From: Dehalococcoidia bacterium
Lineage (GTDB): Bacteria > Chloroflexota > Dehalococcoidia > UBA2979
Direction of reading: 5' to 3'
Assembly: GCA_964291495.2 (NCBI GenBank)
Contig: OZ219868.1
Coordinates: 64,001 to 128,000 of the forward strand
Length of the DNA stretch: 64,000 nucleotides
In this document: positions 10,455 to 36,145 of the stretch, in pieces
Layout: the number at the start of each line of letters is the position of its first letter
Position numbering within the stretch: the first letter of the stretch is position 1
Notes under the pieces: generated by a model
Databases searched by the model: none
Seen by the model: the letters and a program-made list of their open reading frames with translations, nothing else
What the model was told of the DNA's origin: nothing
Position numbers and translations under genes: made by a program

Positions 10455-10481
10455 CGCGTGCCGGTTACGCCGCCATGCGCG

Positions 10482-12498: not shown

Positions 12499-12513
12499 TA
12501 ATGGTCGTCGATC

Positions 12514-13203
12514 ATGCAAGGATTTGCGCCGGTGACATTGGATGCCATCTTCCAGCTTCTCGCGACCGCTCAGTTCGGCGCCTACGTCATGTCGCTCGAT
12601 CAGAAGATCATCTTCTGGAATCAGGCCGCCGAGCGGATCCTCGGCTTCCCGCGCGACCAGGTGATCGGTCGCCGCTGCTACGAGGTGGTGACGGGGCTGA
12701 GCCCCGGGGGCTTCACGCCCGAGTGCCTGCTCGGCTGCCCGTCGCTCCGCTCACTGCGAGGCGGTGATATCCCGAGTGCGTTCACCATGCTGATGCTGTG
12801 CGAGTCCGGCGAGCGCAAGGCAGTTTCGCTCACGCCGATGGTGATCGCCGCTCCCGGCGAGGACACGCCGTTCCTGGTACACCTCTTCGACGAGCCCGCC
12901 GAGGACGAAGGAGCCGACCAGGCGGCCGATTCACTGCGGAGCGAGTTGCGTGAGCAGGGCGCAGCCATCGTGTCGGACCAAGCGCCGGCGACCTCGACTC
13001 CGTCTGATCTCGGCAGACTGACCCAGCGAGAGCTCGAGGTTCTGCGCCTGGTAGCCGCGGGCTGGGGCACGCATCGGATCGCCGAGGCGTTGAGCATCAG
13101 TCCGCATACCGTGCGCAACCACGTGCGCCACTTCCGCGGGAAGCTGAACGCGACGACGAAGCTCGATGCAGTCGTCACGGCGATCCGCCTCGGGATCCTG
13201 TAG
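12514..13203 (+). CDS. PAS domain + LuxR-type HTH transcriptional regulator
   Basis: WNQAAERILG PAS motif; LTQRELEVL...IAEALSISPHTVRNHV...KL LuxR HTH. Confidence 0.92.
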   Translation: MQGFAPVTLDAIFQLLATAQFGAYVMSLDQKIIFWNQAAERILGFPRDQVIGRRCYEVVTGLSPGGFTPECLLGCPSLRSLRGGDIPSAFTMLMLCESGERKAVSLTPMVIAAPGEDTPFLVHLFDEPAEDEGADQAADSLRSELREQGAAIVSDQAPATSTPSDLGRLTQRELEVLRLVAAGWGTHRIAEALSISPHTVRNHVRHFRGKLNATTKLDAVVTAIRLGIL

Positions 13204-13321
13204 TCGCATCGCAGGAGGTGGCCCGCTCGGCCCGCCCCGGACGCGCCAGCAACGGTCCGGATGAAGGTCATGCCGGGAAAGCAGTTCGCGTCGGCGGGCG
13301 CCTCAGCCGCCCGTTCCCCGA

Positions 13322-13350
13322 ATAGGATGGCAGCCTCGGATAGGATGGCA
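13322..13350 (+). repeat. 11-bp direct repeat (ataggatggca x2) immediately upstream of the MMPL start
   Basis: Copies at 13322 and 13340; the second overlaps the RBS region. Confidence 0.6.
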
Positions 13351-13354
13351 CGCC

Positions 13355-15838
13355 ATGAGTAGGGTTCTCGCCAGGCTGAGCTGGCTGATCACCGTTCGCC
13401 CGTACCTCACGATCCTCGTGCTCTTCATCATCACCGTCGTGCTGGCCGCGGGAGCAGGGCGGCGCGCCCCGGTCGTGGAGGGCGCTGCCCTGGCCTTCCT
13501 GCCCCCGGGGAACGCCGTCGCCAATGCGATCGAGGAGATCGACACGCACTTCGGGGAGTCGAGCGACGTCGGCGTCGTCACGCTGATCTTCCGTGGGGAC
13601 GCACTCACTCCCGAGGGGCTCGCGCAGATGGACGGCCTGATCGGTCGCATCGCCGGCGATCCGGGCGTGGGGGAGCTGCTGGCGCACGGCGACCCGATCA
13701 TCGCGCCCACCCTGGTCATCAATGCCGTGCTCCAACGAGATGGCCTCGCGGCGGTCACGCAGGCGGAGATCGACGCCGCCCGCGCTGTCCCCGAGATCGG
13801 CGGGGCGCTCGACGCGATGACCGGAACCGACACCGACGGTACGCCGGTCGCGATAGCCACGATCCGCCTGATCAACACCGGGGACGAGCGAGTAAAGGAG
13901 GCCGAACGGCGGATCAACGAGCTGGCGATCGCGGACGAGGGCCCACTGCGCGTGAGCAGCGTCTCGCCGATCGTGGTCGAGGATGAGTACCGCAAGGCCA
14001 CCGAGGAGGGCATGGCGCCCCTGATCGGCCTGGCGCTGCTCCTGATCGCCGCACTGATCCTGGTCTTCCTCCGCACGCTTTCGGACCTGCTGCTCACGCT
14101 GGTCGGCCTGCTCCTCTCGCTGATCTGGGTGATCGGGGCGGAGGGCTGGCTCGGACCGAACGCGCTGGGGCTGATCGGCCCGCCGAGCTCGCTGACCGCA
14201 TTGGTGCCGATCATCGTGATCAGCCTCACCGTGGACTACGCGATCCAGGCCGTCTCGCACTACCGCGAGCAGCGCGCCGAGGGCGAGCCGGTGGTGGCGG
14301 CGGTGCGGATCGGACTGCAACACGTCACCGTCCCGCTGACCCTGGCCGCCGTCACGACGATCGCGAGCCTGCTGGTGAACCTGCTCTCCCCGATCGGGGT
14401 GATGGGCGACTTCGGCATCGTCGCCGGGCTCGGCGTGGGGATGAGCCTGATCGTGATGCTGACGCTGATCCCGGCCGGCCGGGTGATCATCGACCGGCGG
14501 CGCGAGTCGCGCGGCACGTTGACGCAGCCTCGCCAGGTCGCGAACGCCCTGCCCGGCATCGGCCGGCTGGCGGAGCTTCTCGGGACCTCGGTCGCGCGCA
14601 CCCCGGCGCCCTACTTCGTCGTCGTGATCGCGGTGACCATCGGGCTCGGGTACGCAGCCACGGGACTCGAGTCCGGGTTCAATATCCGCGAGATCCTTCC
14701 CCGGGGCGGCAGCGTGCTGAAAGACATGGAGACGCTCGACGCAACCGTCGGCGGCTCAACGGAGATGGCGAGCGTGCTCATCACGGCCGAGGCCACCGAG
14801 ACTCGCACGCTGCTGAACCTCCACGACCTCAGGATTGCCTTCGATGACGAGGCGCGTCGCCCGCCGGCGGCGGCGGGACCGATCCAGGTCTCCTACGAGT
14901 TACTCGTCAGCGACTGGACAGAGGACAGCGGCGCGCTCGGCGACAAGTACGATCCGGAGCTCGCAGCGCTCTTCCAGCAAGCCACCACGGGGGTGCAGCT
15001 CGACCCGATCGTGATGCAGGAGTTCCTCGACAAGCTCACGGCGAGAGATCCCACCCTCGCGCGTGCGCTTGTGAACGATCCGCAGGGCGTCGACGCCATG
15101 CTGGTCCAGTTCCCAGCCTACTCAGGGGATCCCGCAGTCACGAGGGAGCTGCAGGAGGACATCGAGGCGCTCTGGTTCGGCGACGACGGCGCGGTGACGG
15201 CGACCTCGCTGGACATCGTCGCGGTCGCGGTTACCGACGAGATCACCGGCCGGCAGACCCAGGCGATCAGCACGACCATCGCGGTGGCCCTCGGGATTCT
15301 CGCCCTCTTCTTCTGGGTGACGCTGCGCCAGCCGCTCCTGGCGGTTGTCGCGGTGGGGCCGATCGTGCTCGTCCTTATCTGGGTGCTGGGCACGATGGCG
15401 CTGCTCGACATCCCCTACACGCTGGTCACCTCGATCATCACGGCGCTCTCCATCGGGATCGGGGTGGACTACACGATCCACCTGATCCATCGCTACCGCG
15501 AGGAGTTCACCCGTGTGCGCAATCCGGAGCAGGCGGCGATCCGGACGCTGGCCACCACCGGCTCGGCGCTGCTGGGCTCCGCGCTGACGACGGCGCTCGG
15601 GCTCGGCGTGCTGGTGGCCTCTCCGCTGCTCGCGTCCCAGCAGTTCGGCCTCACGGCGGCGATCACGATCGCCTACTCGCTGATCGTGTCGATCCTCGTG
15701 GTGCCGCCCGCCATGACCGTCTGGGGCGCCTACCAGAACATGCGGCTCCGCTCGATGGTGGACCGCATGGCGGAGGAGCTGGACCTGGCGATCGAGGCGG
15801 TGCACCGCCGCCACGAGGAGGAGCAGGGCGCGCCGTAG
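13355..15838 (+). CDS. MMPL/RND family lipid transporter (paralog 1)
   Basis: 12-TM RND layout with two large loops; SLTVDYAI and GIGVDYTIH D-Y motifs. Confidence 0.9.
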   Translation: MSRVLARLSWLITVRPYLTILVLFIITVVLAAGAGRRAPVVEGAALAFLPPGNAVANAIEEIDTHFGESSDVGVVTLIFRGDALTPEGLAQMDGLIGRIAGDPGVGELLAHGDPIIAPTLVINAVLQRDGLAAVTQAEIDAARAVPEIGGALDAMTGTDTDGTPVAIATIRLINTGDERVKEAERRINELAIADEGPLRVSSVSPIVVEDEYRKATEEGMAPLIGLALLLIAALILVFLRTLSDLLLTLVGLLLSLIWVIGAEGWLGPNALGLIGPPSSLTALVPIIVISLTVDYAIQAVSHYREQRAEGEPVVAAVRIGLQHVTVPLTLAAVTTIASLLVNLLSPIGVMGDFGIVAGLGVGMSLIVMLTLIPAGRVIIDRRRESRGTLTQPRQVANALPGIGRLAELLGTSVARTPAPYFVVVIAVTIGLGYAATGLESGFNIREILPRGGSVLKDMETLDATVGGSTEMASVLITAEATETRTLLNLHDLRIAFDDEARRPPAAAGPIQVSYELLVSDWTEDSGALGDKYDPELAALFQQATTGVQLDPIVMQEFLDKLTARDPTLARALVNDPQGVDAMLVQFPAYSGDPAVTRELQEDIEALWFGDDGAVTATSLDIVAVAVTDEITGRQTQAISTTIAVALGILALFFWVTLRQPLLAVVAVGPIVLVLIWVLGTMALLDIPYTLVTSIITALSIGIGVDYTIHLIHRYREEFTRVRNPEQAAIRTLATTGSALLGSALTTALGLGVLVASPLLASQQFGLTAAITIAYSLIVSILVVPPAMTVWGAYQNMRLRSMVDRMAEELDLAIEAVHRRHEEEQGAP

Positions 15839-15891
15839 GCAGCGAGCGACGGCGCAGCGACACGCCCCGGCCCCGCTGCGTCGGCAGTCTG

Positions 15892-16914
15892 CTAGAGGGG
15901 CTTTCGAGCGAGAAAACAGTAGAGCGGTGTGAAGATGCCTGCCTTGCCGCCCGCGACATAGGCATCCGCAGTCCGATCGAGCAGTCGGACGACTTCCGCG
16001 GAGCCCTCGGGAAACAGCCGCACCACTTCAGCCAGCCCCAGTCCTGCGATCAACGCCTTGCGGCCCCACGGAAGCCTGCGAAGGGCCGTTCCCAGCGTCC
16101 CGTGGCGGCTTTCCATGGGCTGATACCAGGGTGTGGATGGTTCCGTTGTGGCTCCTCGGTCTAGCCCTTCGATAACGTGGAACCCGGCCTCTTCAAGCGC
16201 GTGGTTCACCTCCCTGAACGTCGCGATCTCGTTCAGAGCAATCCCGCGCATCAGGTCCTGCTTGATGGCCTGATGGCGGCGGTCGTTCGGATCGAACGTG
16301 TCCGTAAGGCACATCTCCTGGCCCCAGAAGAGGGCTCCGGGCTTCAGCACGCGGAAGATCTCCTCGAACGCACCTTGCTTGTCCGGCGCGTGGCACGTTG
16401 ACTCGATAGCGTACCCGCCGTCGAAGGTGTCGTCCGCGATTGCGCCCATGTCCATGAAGCTGCAGGCGTGGTAGTCAACCATGTGGTCGAGCCCCGCCTC
16501 GGCGTTCAACCGTTTCGCCCTCTCCAACTGGATCGTGTTGATGTTGATGCCGACTACGCGGACGCCGGACTCGCGGGCGACGCGGCGCATGGGGCCGCCG
16601 ATTCCACAACCGACATCGATAACCGTCATGCCCTGCTGCAGCTCCAGCCGGGAGATCATCAACCGCTGATGCCGGACCTGGGACTCCTCGAGGCTCTCGG
16701 TTGGGGAGAGGGGCGCGAAGTGCAGGGACTCGCTCCAGCCCCACACCATGAATCCGCTGCACAGGTCGTAGTAGTCCTTGACCGTCTCCGTGTGGTCGTA
16801 CCCGGCTTCTGGCGCCGCCCGATCGATCCAGCCGTCGAAGCGCTGGACTCTGTGCCTGACGTCCGTTCCCCGGTACGCATCTCGCAGCTCTCTCGATAGC
16901 CTGCGCAACTGCAC
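15892..16914 (-). CDS. Sterol C-24 methyltransferase-like (ERG6/SMT family) SAM-dependent methyltransferase
   Basis: YYD...WGWSESLHFA (region I), DVGCGIGGP (II), YAIESTCHAP (III), RVLKPG, C-terminal GGKAGIFTPLYCFLARKP (Sterol_MT_C); GGAGGAG RBS. Confidence 0.9.
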   Translation of the reverse strand: MQLRRLSRELRDAYRGTDVRHRVQRFDGWIDRAAPEAGYDHTETVKDYYDLCSGFMVWGWSESLHFAPLSPTESLEESQVRHQRLMISRLELQQGMTVIDVGCGIGGPMRRVARESGVRVVGININTIQLERAKRLNAEAGLDHMVDYHACSFMDMGAIADDTFDGGYAIESTCHAPDKQGAFEEIFRVLKPGALFWGQEMCLTDTFDPNDRRHQAIKQDLMRGIALNEIATFREVNHALEEAGFHVIEGLDRGATTEPSTPWYQPMESRHGTLGTALRRLPWGRKALIAGLGLAEVVRLFPEGSAEVVRLLDRTADAYVAGGKAGIFTPLYCFLARKPL

Positions 16915-17045
16915 GCCCTGGCTCTCCTCCCCGATCGCGCCGATCGTGGTACGCGGTCTGGTCTAGCTGCCTGCTGAGGATGACGCCGATCTCCACGGGG
17001 TCGGGCCGTGGCGGTCGGCGACGGGGATGGTTCGCCGCGTCAGCG

Positions 17046-19091
17046 TTATGAGCTCGCGGCCGGCGCTGTGGGGATCTCGCGCCGCTGCTCGGCGATGTGG
17101 AACTTCAGCTTCTTGCTCACCGAGAGCGACGGGAACGGGTCGATCTTGAGCTTGTAGTTCCTGGGCGCCACCTCGATCGTGAAGTGGTGCGCGAGCAGCA
17201 GCAGGTTGACGGCGAGCTGCAGCTCCATCCAGCGGTTCCCGAGGCAGGTATGCGTACCCAGCCCGAACGGGGCGTACCCGGGGCTGAGGTGTTCGTTGCG
17301 CGGAGGCAGGTAGCGGTCGATGTCGAATGTCCACGGCTCCGGGAAGATGTCGCTCATGTAGTGCGCCGCTGCCTGGGCGATGAAGATCCGTGACCCCTCC
17401 GGGATTTCGTAACCCTCGACCACGCACGCATTCATCACGGTCCGGACGGACATCGGAACGATCGAGTACATGCGCATGGATTCCATGATGAAGCGGCGCG
17501 TCACGTCGATCGAGTCCTCCGTGAAGCCCTCGCGTCCGGGATCGCCGCCATCGAACAGGGCGTCCGCCTCTTCCCGGATCCTGGCGTAGAGCTCGGGCTG
17601 GGACGCCATCGCGTAGAGCGCGAAGCTCAGGCCATCGCCGAGGTAGACGCTGGCGATCAGCGGCGCGGAGAGGACGAAGCGCAGGTTCGACTCCGGGAGG
17701 AACGAAGGGTCGCTCGAGTGCAAGCTGAGCAGGTCGTCCGCGAGATCGCGGGGGCAGCCCGCCCGCTGGGCGGCCGTGTGGACACTCTGGACGCGCTCCA
17801 GCAGCACCTGGATGCTCTTTGCCCGGCGCCGCATTCCCGGGGTCTTGAGCATGAACTTGGGCATGACACCCAGGACGTGCGTGGACAGCGCCCGCGTCTT
17901 GTACTTGACCAGATCGTCCAGGACGTCCTGCGAGTCGACGCTGATCATCAGGGGCGAGATCTGGGAGTTGATCAGCTGCCGGCACATGGACACCGCGGGG
18001 CGAGTGTCTCCAACCTCCCAGGTCGCCATGTGTGACCGGGTGTGGTCGTAGAGATCCTCGAGTTGCCCTTCCAGCCTCGCGCGCGAGTACCCCGGCGCCA
18101 GGGCCTTGCGGAACCGGAAGTGATCGGCGCCGTCCAGCGCGGGCAAGATTCCCGATGCGCCATAGACCTTCTCGAAGTCCTGGAGATAGTCCCGGGCCCT
18201 CAGGTACGTGCGCCCCTGCCGATGCGCCCAGTAGTTCGTCTCCGACCCGGCCAGGACGAGCATGGGCTTCTGGAACGGCGGGTTGAGCTGGTACACGGGC
18301 CCGTACTGTTCGGCGAGATCCGCGAACAGTGCGGGGAGATTGCCGTCGCGAAGATGCCGGTGCAGCGCGAACTTGAGCAGCGGTACCTGGGGAATCGACT
18401 TCGTAAGGCCGGCACGTCCGATCAAGGGGACGTTCATGTTCTGGGTGACTGCCTCGGCGATCGCCCGCCCGATCAGGTCCATCCGGCAGACAAGCTCGAT
18501 GCGCTCCTCCAGCTCGTCGTCGAGCTGGAACATGAAGCGAAACACGTCACAGGTATTGACGAGGGCGACAATGATCACGTCACGAGGGTCGGGGATCTCG
18601 TTGTTGAAGAGCACCCTGCTGATGCGCGTCTTGACGAACTGGGCAGCGGTGCCTTCCCTCTCGCTGCTGAACATCTCGGTCTGCCATGCACGATTCGCAA
18701 GCGTCCAGAAGTCGCCTTCGTGATGCTCCAGGATCTGTCGATCAACCAGGCGCTCAAGCGTCAGGTCGATGATCGACTCTGCACGCGGCGCAAGCCGTTC
18801 GATCCAGTATTGCGCGTTTCGCTGCGTCGTTTCACTTGCAATCTGATCCAGAATGGGATCCAGAACAGGATTGCCGGTTTCCGTCTGGTCCAGAAGGATC
18901 AGGGAGTCCATGTCTGTATCGATACGAGATATGAGCGACAGCTCCGCAAGTGCGGCGCCGACGACGGCGCAGTTCAAGTGCCAGCCTGGTACCTGGTGAA
19001 AGTACCCGCTCTCTTCATTGAGCAGCATCAGGATGAGCTCTTCGGGCAAACTCAGCGCTTGAGTCGTCACGCGGTCGGTAGCGAGAGTCAT
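17046..19091 (-). CDS. GPP34 (GOLPH3/Vps74)-domain cytochrome P450 fusion (paralog 1)
   Basis: N-terminal ~215 aa LSLPEELILMLL...GAALAELSL..RI...TGNPVLD...LERLV..(G)IL; C-terminal P450 with ESMR, PWTFDIDRY, FGLGTHTCLG. Confidence 0.85.
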   Translation of the reverse strand: MTLATDRVTTQALSLPEELILMLLNEESGYFHQVPGWHLNCAVVGAALAELSLISRIDTDMDSLILLDQTETGNPVLDPILDQIASETTQRNAQYWIERLAPRAESIIDLTLERLVDRQILEHHEGDFWTLANRAWQTEMFSSEREGTAAQFVKTRISRVLFNNEIPDPRDVIIVALVNTCDVFRFMFQLDDELEERIELVCRMDLIGRAIAEAVTQNMNVPLIGRAGLTKSIPQVPLLKFALHRHLRDGNLPALFADLAEQYGPVYQLNPPFQKPMLVLAGSETNYWAHRQGRTYLRARDYLQDFEKVYGASGILPALDGADHFRFRKALAPGYSRARLEGQLEDLYDHTRSHMATWEVGDTRPAVSMCRQLINSQISPLMISVDSQDVLDDLVKYKTRALSTHVLGVMPKFMLKTPGMRRRAKSIQVLLERVQSVHTAAQRAGCPRDLADDLLSLHSSDPSFLPESNLRFVLSAPLIASVYLGDGLSFALYAMASQPELYARIREEADALFDGGDPGREGFTEDSIDVTRRFIMESMRMYSIVPMSVRTVMNACVVEGYEIPEGSRIFIAQAAAHYMSDIFPEPWTFDIDRYLPPRNEHLSPGYAPFGLGTHTCLGNRWMELQLAVNLLLLAHHFTIEVAPRNYKLKIDPFPSLSVSKKLKFHIAEQRREIPTAPAASS

Positions 19092-19246
19092 CCATCTTCC
19101 TCCCTGCCCGTCATCAAAATAGTGTAGGTCACGCGCTCAGGCCTCGCAAGGCGACATCCGTGAGACGTCCGGCCAGCCGTGCGGGGAACGCCCCGCTCCC
19201 GTATCCTGACTCCGTGCAGCGGACGACAACAGCGGGAAGGCAGGCC

Positions 19247-20629
19247 ATGGCAACGGGCCGGGGAGCGAGAGCGCCACGGCGAATTGCCATTGTCGGCGGG
19301 GGTATTTCCGGGTTGGCCGCGGCGTGGGCGCTGCACCATCACCCGGACCGCTTTGACTTCCGCCTCTTCGAGGCTCGGGACCAGCTTGGCGGCAACGCGA
19401 TCACGGCTGATATGCCGCAAGGTGACGGCAATTCGATCCCGTTCGACATTTCTGTTACCGCCTGTATCCCATCTGTATACGACCATATTGTCCTGCTCAT
19501 GGAGCAGTTTGGCATCGAGCTGCTCGACACAAGATTCAGCTACAGTGTGAAGTACGCGGGCCAGGTATACGCGCACGACTTCGACTCTGATATCAGGGAA
19601 GAACTGCGATCTGAGATTGCGAGATTCCAACGACTCTTAAGGCGGCTGCATTGGTTCGGAGCCCTCACCCGGTCCCGGTCGAAGCTCCTGAACGCGCTCA
19701 ATCCGTTCAACTACATCAGCATGGGAACGGTGCTCAATCTGGGAGGGTTTTCCGCCGACTTCCGCTACAAGGTGTTGAAGCCGATGTTCGTCAACTTCCT
19801 GATGGCGACGAACGTGTTCGATATGCCTGCGGCGCTCTTCACGAGGTACCTCGAGTTCTTCGATATCGAGACCGCCACGCCGATGCAGACGTGGGACCAG
19901 GGCACGCGACGCATCTACGAGCAGCTGTCGGCCGGCTTCCTCGACAAGATCTCCCTGAGCCGCCCGGTCCGGAAGGTGTATCGCCGCGCCGCCGGAGTCG
20001 TCGTCGAGGACGAGGACGGCGCGCGGGAGGCGTTCGACGATGTGGTCTTCGCGTGCAACGCGAACCAGACGCTGATGATGCTCGACAGGCCTACGATGCT
20101 CGAGCGCCAGCTCCTCTCCTCGATTCGCTACGACAGCGAGCTGCACAACCACGCGATCGTGCACTCGGACTCCTCGGTCCTGCCTGACAACGAGGTCAAG
20201 CCGCTGACGACGCGCAGTAATCACATCGAGCAGTACGGGGCGCGGCCGGACAACTACGAGATCACCTACATCATGCACAACCAGCAGCCGTGGGCGAACA
20301 AGTCGGACAAGCCCTGCCTGGTCACCTACAACCCGATCAGCCGCATCGACGAGGAGAAGATCGTCAAGCGAACGTGGTTCCAGCACATCGTCCACGACGT
20401 GCGCCACGTCGCCCTGACCGTGAACCTCTTCCGCTTCATCCAGGGGAAGCGACGAACCTGGCACTGCGGCGCCCACACGCTGATCAACAGCCAGGAGACG
20501 TGCTTCGTCACCGGGCTCGCCGCGGCGAGGCAACTCGGCGCCGACTACCCCTTCGAGGATCCTGCGGCGCGGCAGTCATTCAACTACTACGGCAGCATCC
20601 TCTACGGCTCGCGATTCAGGAAGGCGTAG
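19247..20629 (+). CDS. FAD-dependent oxidoreductase (COG2907/UfaD-like amine-oxidase fold)
   Basis: IAIVGGGISGLAAAW, FEARDQLGG, QGKRRTWHCGA; start set at ATG 19247 with GGAAGG RBS. Confidence 0.8.
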   Translation: MATGRGARAPRRIAIVGGGISGLAAAWALHHHPDRFDFRLFEARDQLGGNAITADMPQGDGNSIPFDISVTACIPSVYDHIVLLMEQFGIELLDTRFSYSVKYAGQVYAHDFDSDIREELRSEIARFQRLLRRLHWFGALTRSRSKLLNALNPFNYISMGTVLNLGGFSADFRYKVLKPMFVNFLMATNVFDMPAALFTRYLEFFDIETATPMQTWDQGTRRIYEQLSAGFLDKISLSRPVRKVYRRAAGVVVEDEDGAREAFDDVVFACNANQTLMMLDRPTMLERQLLSSIRYDSELHNHAIVHSDSSVLPDNEVKPLTTRSNHIEQYGARPDNYEITYIMHNQQPWANKSDKPCLVTYNPISRIDEEKIVKRTWFQHIVHDVRHVALTVNLFRFIQGKRRTWHCGAHTLINSQETCFVTGLAAARQLGADYPFEDPAARQSFNYYGSILYGSRFRKA

Positions 20630-20778
20630 CGCCCGAGGGCCCTCGTCACAGGGGTCCGGCGGACCCCGCGGCGCGCACCGTTCGGCGTGCGACGAGCGGG
20701 TGACTCTCGTATTCTGGATCTGTGCCCGCTTTGCGGGGAGGCCGTCAACCCGGTATCCGGGGTGAGGAGGGCCGAGCG

Positions 20779-23228: not shown

Positions 23229-23413
23229 GGCGGCAGCATAGCGGCAGTGGAGGCTCGGTCAGGCGCGCAGCGCGGTCCAGCTCCGCCATGGACCGGCAGC
23301 GCGGTTCAATGCCAGAACCTGGGTCGTGTCCGGGAGTACGGCCGGCCAAGGAGGACCGTACTGCGAGCTTCACAGCATGTACAGAGGGCTGCTCATCGTC
23401 ACGGACGGTCGCG

Positions 23414-25982: not shown

Positions 25983-26184
25983 AGCCTGCCGGCGTAGCCC
26001 GCGGTGACCACGGAAGCCAGGGTTGGCCGCCCGCAGGGTCCGAGGTCCGCATGGCACTCGCCTGTTGGTGCGGGGCACGTCTCTCCCGTAGTCCGTGTAT
26101 CCGCGTCGTCGCGTGGTGGTCCGGTGGGCGGGTGGCGGCTGCACGGTGTCGAGCGGCCGCGCCGCTCACACGGAGTGGCGTGCG

Positions 26185-28809: not shown

Positions 28810-28888
28810 TCGGGGCCGACACGGGGACAGATTCTCTCACCACGGCACGGCCGTTGGTGGCGTCCCGGGCTCTCGTGGGTCCCGGCAC

Positions 28889-30349
28889 TCAGCGGCGACG
28901 TTCGAGTCTCATCGGCATGCCGCCCTTCACCTTGAGGCTCATGCGAGGCACAACTTCCGCCTTGCCGGTCGCGTCGGCGCGCCAACGACGGCACAGGCTA
29001 GCCAGCGCGATCTTCGCCTCCATCCACGCGAAGCCCTCGCCGATGCACTGGTGTGGGCCTCCCCCGAAGGGGAAGTACGCGAAGCGCGGCAGCTCACTGC
29101 GGAACTCGTCCGTCCAGCGCCCGGGGCGGAACTCCAGCGGATCCTCGAACCAGCGCGGATCGCGCTGCGTGATGAACGGCGCTGCTATCACCGTGACGCC
29201 CGCCGGGACGTGGTATCCGCCCACGTCGATGGGCTCGTACACCATCCTGCCCAGCGCCCAGAACGGCGGATAGAGCCTCAGTGTCTCCGTGATGATCTGG
29301 TCGGTGAGGGGCAGCTGGGGCAAGTCGTCGAGTGTCACTTCGCGATCGCCCAGCACACCGTCCAACTCCGCATGGAACCGCTCTTCCACGTCGGGGTTCC
29401 GCGAAAGGAGATGGAACGCGTACGCGAGGGTCGTCGCCGTGGTGTCGTGCCCGGCGAGGTACAGAGAGACCGCCTCGTCACGCACCAGCTCGTCGCTCAT
29501 CCCGCCGGCGTCCTCGCCTTCCGCATCCTCGTACCTGGCCTGTAGCAGCATGCACAGCAGGTCGTCCCCCTCGGCCCCGGACTGCCGGCGTTCGCGGATC
29601 AGGCCGAAGATCAGGTCGTCCAGGTAGGCGCGAGCAGCCTTGAAGCGCCTCGAGGAAGGCAGCGGCAGACGATGGAGCAGGTGCCGCAGGAACACCGGCT
29701 GGGTCAGGCGGAGATACATGTACCTGTCGGCCTCCGCGAACGACTCACCCACGCGCCGGACCACCTCGCTCGTCTCGATATCGAACAGGGCCTTGGCCAC
29801 CATCTGGAGCGTCAAGTCCCGCATCTCCTGCTCCATGTCCACACTGGCGCCGTCCTGCCACTGCCGGGACTTCCGGGACGAGATGTCGGTCATCGCGTGA
29901 GCGTATTTCTCGATGAACCTGTGATGGAACCGGGGCTGTATCAGCCGCCGCTGCTGCAGGTGAAAGGCTCCCGTGGATGCGACGAGGCCGTCTCCCATCA
30001 TCCAGCGCACGGTCTCGAACGCAGCGGCGCCCCTGCCGGTATTCTGGTGGTTGGTCACCAGGACCTGCTGGTTGAGTTCCGGGTGATTCACGAGATAGAT
30101 CAGGATCGGCTTCATCGCCACGGTGCTGACATCACCGTACGTGGCGGCCTCCTGCAACAGACCAATCAAGTCGGACCGCAGGCGGAACGCCTGCCCGAGC
30201 ACTGGCAGCCCGGATGGCCCAGGGGGGCGTTCAGCTGACTGGATGGACGGTCTGGGAGGATCGGAGAGCGGCTCGGCGTTGGTCGTGACCGACTGTGCCG
30301 GGCGTGGCTGCATCACGCTATCCCGTTCGCCGGAGATGGCCGGCGCCAC
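28889..30349 (-). CDS. Cytochrome P450 (canonical)
   Basis: PPGP, AGHDTTA I-helix, ETLR, FRPGRW, FGGGPHQCIG; alternative start ATG 30313. Confidence 0.93.
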   Translation of the reverse strand: MAPAISGERDSVMQPRPAQSVTTNAEPLSDPPRPSIQSAERPPGPSGLPVLGQAFRLRSDLIGLLQEAATYGDVSTVAMKPILIYLVNHPELNQQVLVTNHQNTGRGAAAFETVRWMMGDGLVASTGAFHLQQRRLIQPRFHHRFIEKYAHAMTDISSRKSRQWQDGASVDMEQEMRDLTLQMVAKALFDIETSEVVRRVGESFAEADRYMYLRLTQPVFLRHLLHRLPLPSSRRFKAARAYLDDLIFGLIRERRQSGAEGDDLLCMLLQARYEDAEGEDAGGMSDELVRDEAVSLYLAGHDTTATTLAYAFHLLSRNPDVEERFHAELDGVLGDREVTLDDLPQLPLTDQIITETLRLYPPFWALGRMVYEPIDVGGYHVPAGVTVIAAPFITQRDPRWFEDPLEFRPGRWTDEFRSELPRFAYFPFGGGPHQCIGEGFAWMEAKIALASLCRRWRADATGKAEVVPRMSLKVKGGMPMRLERRR

Positions 30350-30580: not shown

Positions 30581-32980
30581 ATGACGGACGCTGATCAGCG
30601 AGACGCCGAGAACGGGGCCCTCCGACACCGGCTGTCCCGACTCAGCGAGGCCAGCCTCAGGATCAATGAAAGCCTCGATCTCGATCGAGTACTCCAGGGC
30701 GTCATGGAGAGCACGCGGGCGCTCACCGGCGCTCGGGCCGGCGTCATGCTGCTCTTCGACGACTCGCTCCAGGTCCAACACGCGCTCACGTCGGGGCTGA
30801 CGGTGGCGGAACAGGCGCAGTTGTGGCAGATGGAAGACGGGATGCTCCTCTTCAACCACATCGGCGGTCTCACATCGACGGTTCGGCACCCCGACTTCAG
30901 CGCGTATCTGAGGGACCTGGGGCTCCCGGACTTCGATTCCCCACTGGACGTGCACTCACCGCTCCCGTTTCTCTTCACTCCCATCACCTACGAAGGCAAA
31001 CCGATCGGCGCGATCTACCTCGGCGACAAGCCGACCGGTGAGGAGTTCACGCAGGAGGATGAAGAGACCCTCGTCATGTTCGCGTCCCAAGCCGCGCTGG
31101 TGATCGCGAACGCCCGCTACCACCGGGACGAGCGACGTGCACGCAATGACCTCGAGGCACTGATCGATTCCACCCCCGTGGCGGTGCTCGTGTTTGACCC
31201 AGGCACAGGCCTTCCGGTCTCGTTCAACCGCGAGGTTATTCGGCTGGCCAACGAGCTGAGCTCTCCGGATCAAAGCCCGGAGGACGTGCTGAAGGTCCTG
31301 ACGGTGCGCCGGGCGGATGGTGAGGAAGTCTCCCTCCAGGAATTGCCGCTGACGACCGCGCTGCGTACCGGCGAGACGGTGCGCGCTGAAGAGATCGCGC
31401 TCTCCGTCCCTGATGGGCGCAGCCTGACCGCACTGCTCAACGTCACCCCAATCCACTCGGAGGCGGGGGCGGTCGAGTCCGTGGTCGTCACGGTGCAGGA
31501 TTTGCGGCCTCTGGAAGAAGCAGAGCGCATGCGGGCCGAGTTCCTGGCCATGGTCAGCCACGAGCTGCGTACCCCGCTGAGTTCGATCCGGGGTTCCGCG
31601 GACACCCTGCTGGACGAACAGGCCGAGCTCCAGCCGGCCGAGGCGCGCGAGTTCTTCCGGATCATTCACGACCAGGCCGGGCGCATGCGCCGACTCATCA
31701 GCGACCTCCTGGACGTGGCCCAGATCCAGACCGGCAACCTCTCCGTCTCTGCCACGCCGGAAGAGGTACGCAACCTTGTGGACGAGGCGAGGAACTCCTT
31801 CGCGTCTTCAGGCGGCCAGAACAACATCCATGTTGAGCTGCCCCCGGACCTCCCGCTCGTGATGGCTGACCGCCCGCGTATCGTTCAGGTCATCACCAAC
31901 CTGCTGTCCAACGCTGCTCGCCACTCGCCCGACCTCTCGACAGTTCGACTGAGTGCCGAGTCCCGGGGCCTGCATGTCGCCGTTACCGTCTCGGACCAGG
32001 GAAGCGGCTTCCCGGCCGAGCAGCTCCCCCAGCTCTTCCGGAAGTTCGCACGCGCCGAGGGCGAAGAGGCAGATACGGGGCTCGGCCTGGCTATCTGCAA
32101 GGGCATCGTCGAGGCGCACGGGGGGAGGATCTGGGCAGAGAGCGACGGACCAGGACAGGGTGCGAGCTTCACGTTCACGCTGCCACACGTGGCGCGGGAG
32201 CCGGCGCCGGAGCCAGTCCGTGACTCCGCCCGCTCGCAACGTGCCTCCCACGCTGAGCAGCCTCGAGTCCTGGTGGTCGACGACGACCCCCAGATGCTCA
32301 GATACGTCCGCGATGTCCTGACCCGGGCGAACTACGCCTCGACCGTGACCGGGGAGCCGGCTGAGGTCCCCGACTTGATGCACCAGGTCGAGCCGCATCT
32401 GGTCTTGCTCGACCTGGTACTGCCTGGCGCTGACGGGATCGAGTTGATGCAGACGATCCGCAATATCGGCCGGGTGCCGGTCATCTTCCTGTCCGCATAC
32501 GGCCAGGACGATGTGATCGCACGCGCATTCGAAATGGGGGCGGCCGACTACGTGGTCAAGCCCTTCTCGCCGACCGAGTTGACAGCGAGGATCCAGGCCG
32601 CATTGCGTCGCGAGAGCGAGCAATCGGGCCAGGCCGTGATCGTCGCGCCGTACATGGTGGGGGATCTCACCATCGACCACGGGCAACGTCGGGTGACCGT
32701 CGCTGGCCGACCGGTTGAGCTCACCGACACCGAGTACCGGCTGCTCGCCGAACTGGCAGCCAACGCAGGCCGCATCATGACGCACGAGCAGCTGACTCAA
32801 CGCCTCTGGGGACCGTACAAGCCCGCCGGCTCGGCCCCCGTGCGAGGGATCGTCACGCGGCTGCGCCGCAAGCTGGGCGACGACGCGTCCAATCCGACGT
32901 ACATCTTCACGAGGCATCGCGTCGGCTACTGGATCGCGAAGGGCGGTGAGGGCGATGGAGAACAGTCCTCGGGCAGGTAA
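30581..32980 (+). CDS. Hybrid GAF-PAS-histidine kinase-receiver-OmpR wHTH regulator (paralog 1)
   Basis: SHELRTPL H-box, NLLSNA, DQGSG, GLGLAIC; VVDDD/LLD/KPF receiver; LRRKLGDD..NPTYIFT..VGY Trans_reg_C. Confidence 0.92.
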   Translation: MTDADQRDAENGALRHRLSRLSEASLRINESLDLDRVLQGVMESTRALTGARAGVMLLFDDSLQVQHALTSGLTVAEQAQLWQMEDGMLLFNHIGGLTSTVRHPDFSAYLRDLGLPDFDSPLDVHSPLPFLFTPITYEGKPIGAIYLGDKPTGEEFTQEDEETLVMFASQAALVIANARYHRDERRARNDLEALIDSTPVAVLVFDPGTGLPVSFNREVIRLANELSSPDQSPEDVLKVLTVRRADGEEVSLQELPLTTALRTGETVRAEEIALSVPDGRSLTALLNVTPIHSEAGAVESVVVTVQDLRPLEEAERMRAEFLAMVSHELRTPLSSIRGSADTLLDEQAELQPAEAREFFRIIHDQAGRMRRLISDLLDVAQIQTGNLSVSATPEEVRNLVDEARNSFASSGGQNNIHVELPPDLPLVMADRPRIVQVITNLLSNAARHSPDLSTVRLSAESRGLHVAVTVSDQGSGFPAEQLPQLFRKFARAEGEEADTGLGLAICKGIVEAHGGRIWAESDGPGQGASFTFTLPHVAREPAPEPVRDSARSQRASHAEQPRVLVVDDDPQMLRYVRDVLTRANYASTVTGEPAEVPDLMHQVEPHLVLLDLVLPGADGIELMQTIRNIGRVPVIFLSAYGQDDVIARAFEMGAADYVVKPFSPTELTARIQAALRRESEQSGQAVIVAPYMVGDLTIDHGQRRVTVAGRPVELTDTEYRLLAELAANAGRIMTHEQLTQRLWGPYKPAGSAPVRGIVTRLRRKLGDDASNPTYIFTRHRVGYWIAKGGEGDGEQSSGR

Positions 32981-33299
32981 CCCGCGCGAGGGAACAACGC
33001 CCGGCACCGCCTTCGTTCGTCGCCCCTGGGTTCCTCCAATGCGTCGCCTGAGGTATCTCGCGAGGCCGCGCACCGCGCGTGGATGGAGGCATCCATCTCG
33101 TTGTTGGGACGGTGCAGATCCCGAAGCTGGATCAGGCTTCCACCCTCGCCTGACGGCCCTCCCCTCGCGGACTCGCCGCTGAGCCATCCCCGGCCTGGGG
33201 CGAAGTCCCACAGACATGAGCGTGGACCTGGTCTGAGTCTGGTCGCCCGCATCTCGGGCGGTCAGCTCGTGAAGGCAGTCGCCTTCAATCGCGGTCACC

Positions 33300-33553
33300 C
33301 GGGCTGGATCAGGCCCTGCGGACGATATTGCCGAGCGCTGCTCTCGCAGGGCGCCACCACCCAGGAACATGGGCGTCACTGTTCAAAGCGACAAGATCCA
33401 GCGTGTGCCCGCGGGGGTGACGGTGGCGCTCTCGAGGCGCGCCGATCGCGATTGAGCGGTGACAGCACGGTCGATGCGCGCGCATCCAATGTCGTCGCCA
33501 CGGTGTCCAAGACTAACGACTCTTCGATTCTGCCCAACCGACGAGGCTGGTGA
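33300..33553 (+). pseudogene. Degenerate gene fragment, possibly MazF/PemK-like
   Basis: VTVQSDKIQRVPAGVTVALS, then frame-shifted LSGDSTV...NVVATVSK. Confidence 0.3.
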
Positions 33554-33700
33554 CGCCGCCGCGTCCCCGCTGCGAATCCCGACCGCCAGGATTCTCGTCG
33601 GGCCTGTCCCCGCACCAGCGACGACGCGACTCGCCCGCTGGCCTTCCGAAGCCGATCCGTTGCTGAGTCCACCCTCTTCTGGATCCCAGAGGGTTTCCTC

Positions 33701-36145
33701 CTACTTCGCCTGCCCCTCGCCCTTCGGCATGCGGTAGCCGACGCGTGGCTCGGCGAAGAAATAGGTCGGGTTGCTGGCGTTCTCGCCAAGCTTGCTGCGA
33801 AGCCGTCTCAGGTGGGTGCGCAGGGCGCGCAGGTCGTTCGGCCGTTTGGCTCCCCAGATTCTCCGCAGCAGTTCGTCGTGGGTCACCACCCGCCCGGCGT
33901 TGACCGACAGCTCGTACAGCAGTTGATACTCCTTGGCCCGCAGCTCCACGGGCTGTCCGTCAAGGGTGACGCGACGCGAGGCGTAGTCGATGGCCAGGTC
34001 GCCGTATGCGTAGGGCTCCGGCGGGTGGAGCTTGTAGGAACGCTCCTGCCGTCGCAACGCCGCCCTGACCCTGGCGACCAGCTCCGTCTGCGAGAAGGGC
34101 TTAACGATGTAGTCGGCCGCCCCTGCCTCGAAGGCCTCCGCGACCACCTCGTCGCGACCGTAGGCGGAGATGAAGATAACCGGCACGTCGGCGACAGCCA
34201 GGATGTCGCGCATCACGGTAATCCCGTCGGCGCCTGGCAGCATCAGGTCGAGCAGGACAAGGCCGGGATGGTGCTCCTCCATGGCGAGAAGCACCGCCTG
34301 CGGCTCGGCGATGACGATTGGCTTGAAGCCGGCATCGGCGAGCGCCCTGCGGACGTAGCGAAGGGTCTGTGGATCATCGTCCACCACGAGAATGGTCTCC
34401 CCGGGATTGGCTTCCGGTTGCGCACGTACCGCGGGCCGGATCAGCTCGGGCGGGGCGTCGTCCACCGTAGGCAGGGTGAAGACAAACCGCGCTCCCAGTC
34501 CCGGCCCCTCGCTCTCGGCCCAGATGCGCCCCCCATGGGCTTCCACGATCCCCTTGCAGATGGCCAGCCCCAGGCCCGTGTCTCCACCGCGGTCTTCGTC
34601 TTCGCCGCGGGAGAACTTGCGGAAGAGGTGGGGTAACCGCTCGGAGGGTATTCCTCTCCCCTCGTCCACAACCGAGACCTCGACGTGGACTCCGTCCCGC
34701 ACGGCGGAGAGCCGGATGGCGGACGATTCCGGTGAGTGCCTGGCGGCGTTGGCCAGGAGATTGCCGATCACCTGGACCACGCGCCGCCGGTCGGCCATCA
34801 CCAATGGCAGGTCGGGCGCCAAATCGATCTCGAGACTGCCCCGACCTCCTGCGCTCCTGAAGGTGTTTCGGGCCCGGTCTACCAGTGCGGCCAATTCTGC
34901 CGGTTCGGGGTGGATCGGCAGCGTGCCGGTCTCGATCCGGGCCACGTCCAGGAGGTCGCCGATCAGGTCGCGCATGCTGCCGGCCTGTTCGAGGATGATG
35001 CGCAGGAACTGGCGCATCTCCACGGGATCGAGATCCTCCGTGTCTTCCAGCATGGCCATCACCGAGCCCCAGATGGAGGTCAGCGGCATGCGCAACTCGT
35101 GGCTCACGATGCCCAGGAACTCGGCACGCAGCCGTTCCATCTCCTCCAGAGGCATCATGTCCTGGATGGTGACGACCACCGACTCCACCTCGCCCGCCTC
35201 CGAGCGGATGGGCGTGGCGTTGAGGAGCACGGCGACGCTCCGACCATCGGGAACCTCCAGAACGATCTCCTCGGCCCGCACTGTCTCCGTCCTGCTGAGG
35301 GTCTCGGCCAGAGGGAACTCGAGCAGGGAGATTGTCGTTCCGTCGGCGCGGCGCACGGTGATCACGTCCAGCAACTGCTCCGCCGTCTGCTCCGGACTCC
35401 GCAGCCCGTCGACGATCCTCCGCGCCTCCTTGTTGATCGACACTGGCGCGCCGCGTGGCATGTCGAAGACGACCACACCCACGGGGGATGTATCGATCAG
35501 GGTCTCCAGGTCAGCTCTGGCACGCCGCTCATCCCGGTGCCTTCGGGCGTTGGCGATGACCAGCGCCGCCTGCGAAGCGAGCATCACGAGGGTCTCCTCG
35601 TCTTCCTGCGTGAACTCGCCGCCGGTCTTCTCGTTGCTCAGGTGGATACTGCCCACGCTCTTGCTACGGTGGCGTACGGGGACGCCGAGAAAGGCGCTGA
35701 TTGGCACAGGAGTGTGCAATTCGCCAAGGCCCACTGCCCTGGCATGGCTCCCCAGGTCCGCCACCCGAACCGGGGCCGTAATCGTGCAGAGGTACTCGAA
35801 GAACCCTTGCCCGTTGGGGATCTCCCAGAGACGCCGGGCCTCGTCGACGGTGAGTCCGGAGACGCGAAGGTCCTCCATTCCTCCCTGCTCGTCGAGGGTG
35901 GTGATGACGGCGTAGCGGGCACCCGTGAGCGTCCGGGCGCTGTCCAATACGCGCTGAAGGACATCATCGAGGTCGAGGCTCTCGTTGATCCGAAGACTGG
36001 CGTCGCTCAGGCGGGAGAGCCGGTCGCGCAGCGTCGCCATCTGCCGGTCGCGAGCATCCGGTTCCGTCAATCTGTCCTCCCTGGCCCTAGGGTCGGCGGG
36101 CACCGAGCCGGTGCGTGGTTCGAGTTGCCGGACGGGGTCCGACAT
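33701..36145 (-). CDS. Hybrid GAF-PAS-histidine kinase-receiver-OmpR wHTH regulator (paralog 2)
   Basis: SHELRMPL, NLLANA, DEGRG, GLGLAIC; VVDDD...KPF; LRSKLGEN..NPTYFF..RVGY. Confidence 0.92.
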   Translation of the reverse strand: MSDPVRQLEPRTGSVPADPRAREDRLTEPDARDRQMATLRDRLSRLSDASLRINESLDLDDVLQRVLDSARTLTGARYAVITTLDEQGGMEDLRVSGLTVDEARRLWEIPNGQGFFEYLCTITAPVRVADLGSHARAVGLGELHTPVPISAFLGVPVRHRSKSVGSIHLSNEKTGGEFTQEDEETLVMLASQAALVIANARRHRDERRARADLETLIDTSPVGVVVFDMPRGAPVSINKEARRIVDGLRSPEQTAEQLLDVITVRRADGTTISLLEFPLAETLSRTETVRAEEIVLEVPDGRSVAVLLNATPIRSEAGEVESVVVTIQDMMPLEEMERLRAEFLGIVSHELRMPLTSIWGSVMAMLEDTEDLDPVEMRQFLRIILEQAGSMRDLIGDLLDVARIETGTLPIHPEPAELAALVDRARNTFRSAGGRGSLEIDLAPDLPLVMADRRRVVQVIGNLLANAARHSPESSAIRLSAVRDGVHVEVSVVDEGRGIPSERLPHLFRKFSRGEDEDRGGDTGLGLAICKGIVEAHGGRIWAESEGPGLGARFVFTLPTVDDAPPELIRPAVRAQPEANPGETILVVDDDPQTLRYVRRALADAGFKPIVIAEPQAVLLAMEEHHPGLVLLDLMLPGADGITVMRDILAVADVPVIFISAYGRDEVVAEAFEAGAADYIVKPFSQTELVARVRAALRRQERSYKLHPPEPYAYGDLAIDYASRRVTLDGQPVELRAKEYQLLYELSVNAGRVVTHDELLRRIWGAKRPNDLRALRTHLRRLRSKLGENASNPTYFFAEPRVGYRMPKGEGQAK

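Follow-up and report, generated by a model that had tools for sequence, protein, structure and literature searches.

Functional sterol methyltransferases (SMTs) have been described from bacterial symbionts, together with clusters that contain an oxidosqualene cyclase (OSC) and sdmA/sdmB (Brown et al. 2023, PMC10070321). Steranes with alkylated side chains, among them 24-isopropylcholestane and 26-methylstigmastane, are used as the oldest chemical evidence for animals, and the makers of their precursors are disputed (PMC10070321, PMC12541326). Proteins in which a GPP34 (GOLPH3) domain is fused to a cytochrome P450 (GPP34_L) have been reported from sponge symbionts only, where they form a monophyletic group and are transcribed in Aplysina aerophoba, and were proposed to be secreted effectors that bind phosphatidylinositol 4-phosphate (PI4P) and counter phagocytosis (PMC11706023). 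A third line of precedent is the furan fatty-acid pathway of Rhodobacter sphaeroides, formed by UfaM, UfaD and UfaO (PMC7380195). Here we report that parts resembling these separate systems stand side by side in a 64,000-nucleotide stretch of a Dehalococcoidia bacterium genome (assembly GCA_964291495.2, contig OZ219868.1, positions 64,001 to 128,000), referred to below as the window and numbered from its first letter. Five genes at 13355-21885, which encode a lipid-type transporter, a variant SMT, a GPP34-P450 fusion, a flavoenzyme and a Rieske oxygenase, form a conserved cassette. A previous sequence-only reading had taken the larger block at 12514-36145 as one candidate system for the import and remodelling of sterols.

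Gene calls at 12514-36145 were open reading frames (ORFs) supported by codon-position G+C (GC3), with domains assigned by Pfam, and they gave twelve genes. Every entry in the earlier gene list was found, and an MFS transporter that had been overlooked (21882-23228, reverse strand; MFS_1 153 bits) was added to it. The first gene of the cassette, RND1 (13355-15838, forward strand), encodes a resistance-nodulation-division (RND) transporter of the MMPL type with a sterol-sensing domain (MMPL 147 bits, Sterol-sensing 44.6 bits). The variant SMT-family enzyme, hereafter the module SMT (15892-16914, reverse strand), matches Sterol_MT_C at 61.7 bits (cut-off 21.7), Methyltransf_11 at 64.3 bits and CMAS, and upstream of it, in the same direction, lies a first GPP34-P450 fusion (fusion a; 17046-19091, reverse strand; GPP34 107.9 bits, p450 132.3 bits). 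These are followed on the forward strand by an FAD flavoenzyme of the amine-oxidase fold that resembles LkcE and a fatty-acid isomerase (19160-20629; Amino_oxidase 66.9 bits), and by a Rieske [2Fe-2S] oxygenase with a KshA-type C-terminal domain (20722-21885; KshA_C 91.8 bits, Rieske 67.2 bits). The real start of the flavoenzyme probably lies about 29 codons downstream of the ORF start, as relatives align from about residue 29.

More than 513 relatives of the module SMT were present in the species-representative genome collection, and neighbours were counted around the best 80 of them (73-83% identical) by tblastn with the window's proteins, within 10 kb of each SMT and at a coverage of at least 0.5. 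Because several of these loci are short contigs, the counts given for them are lower bounds. The titles of the metagenome-assembled genomes (MAGs) among the best 80 name 11 phyla in all, covering Dehalococcoidia/Chloroflexota, Latescibacterota, Gemmatimonadota, Nitrospirales, Nitrospinota, Binatia, Thermodesulfobacteriota, Acidobacteria, Opitutales, Rhodothermales and Acidimicrobiaceae. A GPP34-P450 gene was found beside the SMT in 74 of the 80 loci, the Rieske oxygenase in 67, the flavoenzyme in 39 (75-84% identity) and an MMPL-type RND in 22-23. When all neighbouring ORFs were clustered, 29 loci proved to hold an AcrB-type RND, accompanied by HlyD in 16 cases and by OEP in 13, and another 13 matches belonged to a second MMPL type. 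An RND of some type was thus present in 64/80 loci and in 57 of the 67 full-length ones. The commonest arrangement was the fusion followed by the SMT on one strand, and gene order was otherwise variable. Conserved neighbourhoods of SMT, GPP34-P450, Rieske and MMPL genes, for which the sequence-only reading had asked, thus exist for the core, with co-occurrence across many phyla.

The remaining genes of the block behaved differently. Matches to its stand-alone P450 (P450c) stood beside the SMT in 24/80 loci at only 24-31% identity, relatives of the MFS transporter in five at 27-35% plus one at 91% in the near-syntenic locus L054 (discussed below), a relative of the LuxR-type regulator in one (the near-identical L054), and relatives of the two kinase-regulators in none. 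P450c, earlier grouped with the other enzymes, is therefore not a conserved partner, and neither are the MFS transporter and the LuxR-type regulator. The closest species (G051, SMT 93% identical) holds only the flavoenzyme, Rieske, fusion, SMT and RND genes, in another neighbourhood and with RND1 at 90% identity; no LuxR regulator stands beside the cassette there. The entire 24-kb block as the conserved unit was ruled out on this account. Given the neighbour counts, the gene content of G051 and the multi-copy nature of the kinase-regulator family, we conclude that the conserved unit comprises five genes (RND1, variant SMT, GPP34-P450, flavoenzyme and Rieske) and that the second fusion, the second RND, P450c, the MFS transporter and the regulators are lineage-specific additions.

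The module SMT consists of a class I methyltransferase domain followed by Sterol_MT_C, the domain composition expected of the SMT family, and is a single copy in the window's genome. Its Region II reads DVGCGIGGP, a histidine lies in LHF and a glutamate in YAIES; the equivalents of H90 and E195, which are essential in yeast ERG6 (preprint 10.64898/2025.12.19.695621), are both kept, E195 being located by motif rather than by full alignment. Region I departs from the canonical form. According to the same preprint, 84-GWGxxFHF-91 occurs without exception in SMTs that act on desmosterol or 24-methylenecholesterol, and SMTs that deviate from it may be inactive or require other substrates (10.64898/2025.12.19.695621), whereas the window's enzyme has GWSESLHF after F-M-V-W and does not match GWGxxFHF. 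Most of 154 module-type sequences share the listed variants FMV[WFY]GW[GSN][EQ]SLHF, with M-V at positions 81-82 (the motif could not be placed in 13 of the 154), whereas 14 canonical SMT copies from the same loci have F[YF]E[FY]GWGxSFHF. The cassette enzymes look active, with the SAM (S-adenosylmethionine) motif, H90, heme cysteine and ExxR kept and 73-84% identity across phyla. Because the clade is conserved and widespread yet deviates in Region I, we suggest that it probably acts on another substrate than desmosterol or 24-methylenecholesterol.

In a maximum-likelihood tree, 81 module-type SMTs grouped in a single shallow clade (SH-aLRT 100) that excludes 11 canonical copies of the same loci, which points to a clade that is distinct from, and sister to, the canonical SMTs. 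The clusters of Brown et al. (2023) are the closest described counterparts: they share Methyltransf_11 + Sterol_MT_C SMTs in sponge-associated bacteria, and a Nitrospirales cassette locus described below likewise holds OSC, CYP51 and SdmA/B-like genes (PMC10070321). They differ in that the module clade has the FMV[WFY]GW[GSN]ESLHF form of Region I and sits mostly in hosts without OSC. A further difference is that the constant partners of the module SMT are a GPP34-P450, a KshA_C Rieske and an LkcE-like flavoenzyme, and the words 'P450' and 'Rieske' are absent from the main text on those clusters (PMC10070321).

Phylum labels on the module SMT clade require 15-18 changes, and the window's SMT groups beside Tepidiformaceae (Chloroflexota) sequences with a support of 86. 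Identity between phyla (73-84%) is as high as inside the genus (67-93% for module-type copies). These patterns suggest that the cassette is horizontally mobile and has spread over at least 11 phyla by gene transfer. Its distribution in the window's own lineage is patchy: the module SMT was found in 13 of 60 related genomes, including 10 of 18 other species of the genus, and an eleventh congener with an SMT match (G049) has only a 44%-identical copy. All 13 relatives with the module SMT carry a full-length fusion, which is adjacent in 8/8 cases with both genes on one contig, and one genome (G054) has a full-length fusion without the SMT. In four SMT-less congeners, partial or split matches to the fusion were observed (G046:C1:1820718-1822481, G053:C1:1041756-1042781, G056:C4:635174-636289 and G059:C4:1420921-1422953), which look as if the cassette had decayed. 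Locus L054 (titled Chloroflexi bacterium SB0662_bin_38) is syntenic with window positions 8001-23336 at 82-91% nucleotide identity, including the RecQ/DUF35/thiolase flank; MAG labels can be wrong, and owing to this synteny, flanks included, with a window of actinobacterial character, the phylum label of L054 is probably a binning error. Its SMT is the most divergent of its proteins (76% versus 84-98% for the neighbours), which hints at allele replacement. Four sequencing runs labelled sponge metagenome, from four studies, contain contigs that match each of the 30 bins of the cassette at a likeness of 90% or more. In four sponge metagenomes, stretches within the flavoenzyme gene (window 19625-20764) had 10-100 times the summed contig depth, at 90% likeness or above, of the remaining cassette, reflecting near-identical DNA in many co-resident organisms.

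The window encodes two single-polypeptide GPP34-P450 proteins, fusions a and b, which are only 30% identical to each other. Fusion a belongs to the cassette and has the heme loop FGLGTHTCLG and the motif ESMR, with C616, E537 and R540 invariant in 39 sequences. Its P450 half is remotely CYP51-like (E about 1e-19), and its I-helix stretch reads SVYLGD, without a threonine, against AGQHTS of CYP51 in what is a weak alignment at 23% identity. The GPP34 profile matches GOLPH3/Vps74 at E=5e-8, and the GPP34 half alone found only Vps74 by phmmer, at E=0.39. The basic PI4P pocket of human GOLPH3 comprises W81, R90, R171 and R174. A weak profile alignment to 3kn1 (E=5e-8) places V at R90, E at R171, I at R174 and a W two positions off W81. 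As in GPP34_L, the architecture has two domains, several divergent copies occur per genome and Actinobacteriota are among the reported symbionts (PMC11706023). Unlike there, the fusion here sits in a metabolic cassette with an SMT, and the words 'sterol' and 'methyltransferase' do not occur in the text of that paper (PMC11706023). A third GPP34 gene of the genome is a short GPP34-only gene at G000:C5:29416-30012 (L002; 141.7 bits), and its orthologue in related genomes is 41-46% identical to the GPP34 half of the fusion.

The best structural relative of the Rieske oxygenase is KshA (4qdc, E=1e-22), and it is the sole KshA_C gene in the genome. It has the domain pair of KshA (Rieske + KshA_C), a likeness at the level of the family only. 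It shares a Rieske [2Fe-2S] domain and a KshA-type catalytic domain with the steroid-acting enzymes KshA (3-ketosteroid 9-alpha-hydroxylase), SdmA (sterol C-4 demethylase) and Neverland/DAF-36 (cholesterol 7-desaturase), and it differs from KshA in lying only 1e-22 from KshA structures and in having no KshB-like partner nearby. An assignment as SdmA was ruled out (NCBIfam NF052579, 34.3 bits versus a cut-off of 600), and no NCBIfam model besides SdmA matched at E <= 1e-5. Searches of the ESM Atlas with the flavoenzyme and the Rieske protein returned generic clusters only; one cluster near the Rieske protein is automatically named 'cholesterol 7-desaturase family', which is a lead only. For the flavoenzyme, the structural relatives were LkcE (6f7l, E=3e-31) and the fatty-acid isomerase of P. 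acnes (Propionibacterium) (PAI; 2b9w, E=7e-12), and the best 120 database clusters (81-96% identical) carried generic names and no functional label.

RND1 and its paralogue RND2 are 69% identical and have about 13 hydrophobic segments in a hydropathy scan. Their best NCBIfam model was HAE3 (193-198 bits versus a cut-off of 351.9), and the structural relatives of RND1 were MmpL4/3, HpnN, Dispatched and Patched. They share with HpnN (hopanoids), BstA (sterols, in Methylococcus) and MmpL3/4/5 the RND fold, 12-13 membrane segments, a sterol-sensing-type domain and a position beside lipid-tailoring genes, but score far below the equivalog cut-offs of HpnN (TIGR03480; 89.8 and 114.7 versus 751.85) and BstA (46.5 and 43.6 versus 1400). 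RND1 is the cassette member in monoderm-type hosts, and in Gram-negative hosts the neighbour of the cassette is an AcrB-HlyD-OEP efflux set. RND pumps are generally known as exporters. The sterol import proposed by the sequence-only reading is therefore not borne out, since the RNDs resemble lipid exporters (HAE3/MmpL/HpnN), the neighbours in Gram-negative hosts are efflux sets and no Mce/MlaD gene was found in the genome.

We then considered where sterols could come from. The window's genome (3.08 Mb, 93.7% complete) gave no match for PF13243, PF13249, PF08491 or TIGR03463. This agrees with the earlier observation that the window lacks a squalene epoxidase (SE) or cyclase and extends it, with regard to osc/shc, to the rest of the genome. 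Given the completeness of 93.7%, the absence of cyclase and epoxidase is likely rather than proven. The pair that would define a de novo sterol cluster, OSC and SE in one genome, was not found. Among 47 cassette genomes no match exceeded the cut-off for oxidosqualene cyclase. Five of them (G008, G011, G015, G021 and G024) have full-length OSC-like matches at 712-740 bits, versus 224-291 bits for the other cyclase matches, and all four of the latter that were sampled are squalene-hopene cyclases. The OSC-like gene is missing from 42 of the 47, including the window's genome and four of its relatives, and 29/47 have no cyclase match. As the window's genome and 42/47 cassette genomes in all are without an OSC-like gene, de novo sterol synthesis in the window's organism is unlikely.

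Where sterol biosynthesis is present, the cassette accompanies it. The OSC-like gene adjoins the cassette in three of the five genomes that have one (G011, G015 and the Nitrospirales genome G021), inside the SMT locus or no more than about 1.3 kb from it. The G021 cluster contains MFS, MMPL/SSD (sterol-sensing domain), an SE-OSC ORF, CYP51 (5e-105), ERG4_ERG24, a VanA_C Rieske with an extended short-chain dehydrogenase/reductase (SDR) and a canonical SMT, and continues with the flavoenzyme, the KshA_C Rieske, the module SMT and the fusion; its VanA_C Rieske and SDR fit the SdmA/SdmB pattern. This union of the cassette with SE-OSC, CYP51, ERG24, SdmA/B-like genes and a canonical SMT is what ties the cassette to bona fide sterols. 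In G021, the FAD_binding_3 + SE and cyclase domains lie in one ORF of about 1200 aa (L181:11522-15331) beside CYP51, with its 5' end overlapping CYP51, and open frames of 1164-1211 aa were likewise seen in G008, G011 and G015. This ORF looks like a fused SE-OSC enzyme, with an uncertain start.

Taken together, we propose that the cassette tailors the isoprenoid end of an externally supplied sterol-type triterpenoid and exports the product through an RND pump, a reading to which we assign a probability of roughly 45%. The broader claim that the cassette acts on either a sterol or squalene appears considerably safer, and we regard it as rather probable. In the absence of OSC, hopene cyclase and squalene epoxidase genes, the substrate would most likely be a sterol from the sponge host or from neighbouring symbionts. 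Such a sterol is assumed to partition passively into the cell membrane. There it would be oxidised or desaturated by the P450, which its GPP34 domain would keep at the membrane, by the Rieske enzyme, or by both. The SMT would transfer a methyl group from SAM onto a side-chain double bond, the LkcE/PAI-like flavoenzyme would then desaturate the product or shift its newly formed allylic double bond, in the way that UfaD follows UfaM, and the RND pump would carry the result out of the cytoplasmic membrane, either to the envelope or to the host. The order of these putative steps follows the analogy with UfaM, UfaD and UfaO (PMC7380195), whose pathway logic likewise runs from a SAM-dependent methylase acting on an olefin, through an FAD desaturase for the methyl-branched product, to an O2-dependent oxygenase. 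That pathway differs in its phospholipid acyl substrate and its methylase of the cyclopropane-fatty-acid-synthase type (PMC7380195), and the oxygenases here are P450 and Rieske proteins. The sterol-tailoring claim of the sequence-only reading accordingly survives in its conserved core and in the Nitrospirales sterol link, and not in import or dedicated sensing; the squalene synthesis encoded by the genome had escaped it.

Several findings weigh against tailoring of an external sterol. Since Region I departs from GWGxxFHF, the common Delta-24 sterols may not be the substrate of the SMT. No importer of the Mce/MlaD kind was found in the window's genome, and no ferredoxin or reductase was seen among the most widely shared neighbour clusters, of which the larger ones were annotated. 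The linkage is looser for more distant SMT relatives, as in a second, independent set of 80 metagenome contigs (SMT 59-84% identity), in which the fusion was found in 39, the Rieske in 22, an RND in 10 and the flavoenzyme in 7; among the 34 such loci that span 15 kb or more, 21 had the fusion, and many SMTs in the 63-70% identity range had none of these neighbours. These 80 metagenome loci include none of the contigs with tested SMTs named in the literature consulted. Finally, an hpnE-hpnD-hpnC operon lies on another contig than the cassette (G000:C5:911247-914423; L186:5248-8424), with hpnE at 410.8, hpnD at 280.5 and hpnC at 322.3 bits, all above the NCBIfam cut-offs. No cyclase, epoxidase or CrtI/CrtN-type desaturase was found, so that the genome, as predicted from its genes, can make squalene without a known consumer. 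HpnC is above cut-off in 28/47 cassette genomes and in 20 of the 29 without a cyclase match. A carotenoid fate for squalene was ruled out, there being no CrtI/CrtN-family gene above cut-off in the window's genome, and the neighbours of hpnCDE include nothing lipid-related.

These last observations lead to the alternative that survives best, in which endogenous squalene made by HpnC/D/E would be methylated at its terminal isopropylidene ends by the SMT, oxidised or desaturated, and moved by the RND to the envelope as a sterol or hopanoid surrogate. The complete hpnCDE set with no known squalene fate, the frequency of HpnC among cassette genomes and the variant Region I all fit such a route. In 9/10 further genomes some SQS_PSY gene is present, and among 61 related genomes 13 have both SMT and HpnC, one the SMT alone, 11 HpnC alone and 36 neither. 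A precedent exists in TMT-1/2/3 of Botryococcus braunii, described as members of the SMT family whose sterol-binding regions are variant and which add methyl groups to squalene (TMT-1/2) or botryococcene at the isopropylidene ends, after which the products are hydroxylated or epoxidised; these enzymes are eukaryotic, and no linked P450, Rieske or RND belongs to that description (PMC3533583). The relatives share habitat and ancestry, however, so that the 2x2 table is not independent evidence, and hpnCDE never adjoins the cassette in about 20 genomes whose coordinates were compared, whereas OSC does in 3/5. HpnC is also kept in five SMT-less congeners, four with a partial fusion (G046, G053, G056 and G059) and one with none (G057). 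As they keep HpnC without the module SMT or a full-length a-type fusion, squalene has another role in those five. It further argues against squalene that ring steroids are the better-known setting of KshA_C Rieske proteins and of pumps with an SSD. On balance we hold methylation of endogenous squalene to be somewhat unlikely, and external sterol tailoring remains our preferred reading.

A wider reading, which we offer as speculation and judge to be quite unlikely, is that sterol or triterpenoid chemistry is split among members of the sponge community, with hpnCDE squalene makers in many phyla that have no cyclase, a few cyclisers (such as the Nitrospirales with SE-OSC) and a mobile cassette that performs unconventional side-chain alkylation and oxidation on the shared pool. 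If so, the variant SMT clade, with its rebuilt sterol-binding region, would supply the enzyme so far missing for alkylations that are multiple or lie away from C-24, as in 26-methyl or cyclopropyl sponge sterols, GPP34 would be a lipid-handling module rather than a phagosome effector, and 'sponge' sterane biomarkers would partly be bacterial products made from host sterol.

The label SMT could itself mislead if the cassette worked on a different lipid that carries an isolated double bond, for instance a hopanoid, a carotenoid or a fatty acyl chain of the kind found in furan and methyl-branched fatty acids. The methyltransferase does also match CMAS and cyclopropane-fatty-acid synthase models, the solved relatives of the flavoenzyme use a polyketide amide (LkcE) or linoleate (PAI) as substrate, UfaM, UfaD and UfaO serve the synthesis of a fatty acid (PMC7380195), and 12 cassette genomes have only hopene-type cyclase matches. 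Yet Sterol_MT_C is well above its cut-off in a clade that appears sister to canonical SMTs, the cassette is linked to OSC, CYP51 and ERG24 in Nitrospirales, and the 29/47 genomes without a cyclase match imply that hopanoids are not the general substrate. We therefore consider a different lipid class improbable.

Still more doubtful is that the fusion serves as a host-directed effector, released into the phagosome to bind PI4P and block maturation, with neighbours that are unrelated or only loosely linked to it. The GPP34 domain is real (Pfam 108 bits; GOLPH3/Vps74 E=5e-8), and the fusion has been reported only in sponge symbionts, in which it is transcribed (PMC11706023). In most loci, however, it adjoins the SMT, Rieske and flavoenzyme genes in a mostly co-directional manner, as the genes of a metabolic operon do. 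No signal-like hydrophobic N-terminus was seen in a hydropathy scan, and the invariant heme cysteine and ExxR imply that the P450 half is under catalytic constraint. A weak profile alignment puts V and I at the positions of R90 and R174 of GOLPH3. The effector and metabolic readings of the fusion are nonetheless compatible with each other. Steroid catabolism, in which host steroids would be ring-opened for carbon by the KshA-like Rieske, a flavin dehydrogenase and a P450 in the place of CYP125, with the help of the flanking thiolase/DUF35 genes and an enoyl-CoA hydratase, finds some footing in the Rieske's best solved relative (KshA, 1e-22) and in the thiolase-like and ChsH2-type DUF35 genes beside the block and similarly in G051, but is highly improbable given that an SMT is a biosynthetic enzyme, that the genome has one KshA_C gene only and no Mce system, that the cassette crosses phyla without beta-oxidation genes and that the Nitrospirales cassette sits among biosynthetic genes.

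The individual parts, namely the fusion and bacterial SMTs, are already published (PMC11706023, PMC10070321). The claim that no described pathway combines them therefore holds for the linkage, which we did not find in print, and not for GPP34-P450 fusions (PMC11706023) or symbiont SMTs in sterol clusters (PMC10070321). In the main texts searched, we found neither the linkage of the parts, nor the distinct SMT clade, nor the predominance of OSC-less hosts, nor the consumer-less squalene synthesis. What emerges is a distinct SMT clade, abundant in sponge metagenomes and linked to three redox enzymes and a lipid pump, most carriers of which are predicted from their genes to be unable to make sterols. 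Should the cassette remodel sterol of the host, 'sponge' sterols could arise in symbionts that have no de novo synthesis, and counts of OSC genes would miss them. The sponge-specific GPP34-P450 fusion also gains a concrete metabolic setting, other than the effector role proposed in print, and squalene synthesis without a known consumer is flagged as a common trait of these symbionts.

The lineage-specific genes of the block include fusion b (23820-25982, forward strand; GPP34 106.1 bits, p450 174.6 bits), whose real start probably lies downstream of the ORF start, as relatives align only from residue 62. Its three relatives, 75-76% identical, come from MAGs of Binatia and Thermodesulfobacteriota and lie no more than 5 kb from an a-type fusion in every case, and two of the three also have the flavoenzyme and Rieske genes nearby. 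RND2, another MMPL protein with a sterol-sensing domain, lies at 26095-28809 (forward strand; MMPL 147.9 bits, Sterol-sensing 58.7 bits). P450c (28889-30349, reverse strand; p450 279 bits) is closest in structure to 3dbg (CYP170A1, E=1e-68) and matches the NCBIfam models for albaflavenone and pentalenene oxygenases at about 300 bits, below cut-off, and is best described as a CYP170A1-like accessory P450. A role as CYP51 was ruled out, since its best CYP51 match is weaker (E=1e-43) and the control, a neighbour of the SMT in G021, is CYP51 at 5e-105 with 56 best hits that are all CYP51. In that locus, the one examined, the P450c match is thus a true CYP51.

Three regulators complete the block: a PAS + LuxR/GerE protein at its left end (12514-13203, forward strand; GerE 57.6 bits, PAS) and two fused sensor kinase-response regulators of the form GAF-PAS-HisKA-HATPase-REC-Trans_reg_C with an OmpR-type output, one at 30581-32980 (forward strand) and one at 33701-36145 (reverse strand), both assigned by Pfam and 57% identical to each other. 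In each kinase-regulator a single soluble polypeptide combines the sensing, kinase and receiver parts with the DNA-binding output. In the hydropathy scan the three regulators and the enzymes showed no membrane segments, consistent with the earlier description of all three regulators as cytoplasmic. Their description as dedicated sensors has to be withdrawn for the kinase-regulators, because the family has four copies in the genome (including G000:C6:149869-152259 and C6:261589-263970) and up to six in related genomes, among them the SMT-less G057, and because no copy stands beside the cassette in the other 80 loci.

The block has a G+C content of 0.61-0.68, versus 0.70-0.74 in the flanks, and a tRNA-Gln gene (36923-36996, reverse strand; ARAGORN) marks its right edge in the G+C profile. 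Pfam scans for mobile-element borders showed no integrase or transposase, and a repeat search gave only echoes of the paralogues and one intergenic repeat, a 55-nt sequence, 78% alike, at 23512-23565 (upstream of fusion b) and 33386-33439 (between the kinase-regulator genes), which may be a shared regulatory site. The flanks carry PAC2, a classic MmpL, Ku/LigD and luciferase-like oxidoreductases and look actinobacterial in character. Thiolase-like and ChsH2-type DUF35 genes adjoin the block at 10482-12141, and separate paralogues flank the cassette in G051 (C1:2299173-2303676), which may be a coincidence or may reflect a lipid-catabolic neighbourhood. Further to the right lie a protein with four LysM repeats (38145-39794) and a leucine-rich-repeat/fibronectin-III protein (59813-61849), both of the eukaryote-like repeat type reported for sponge symbionts.

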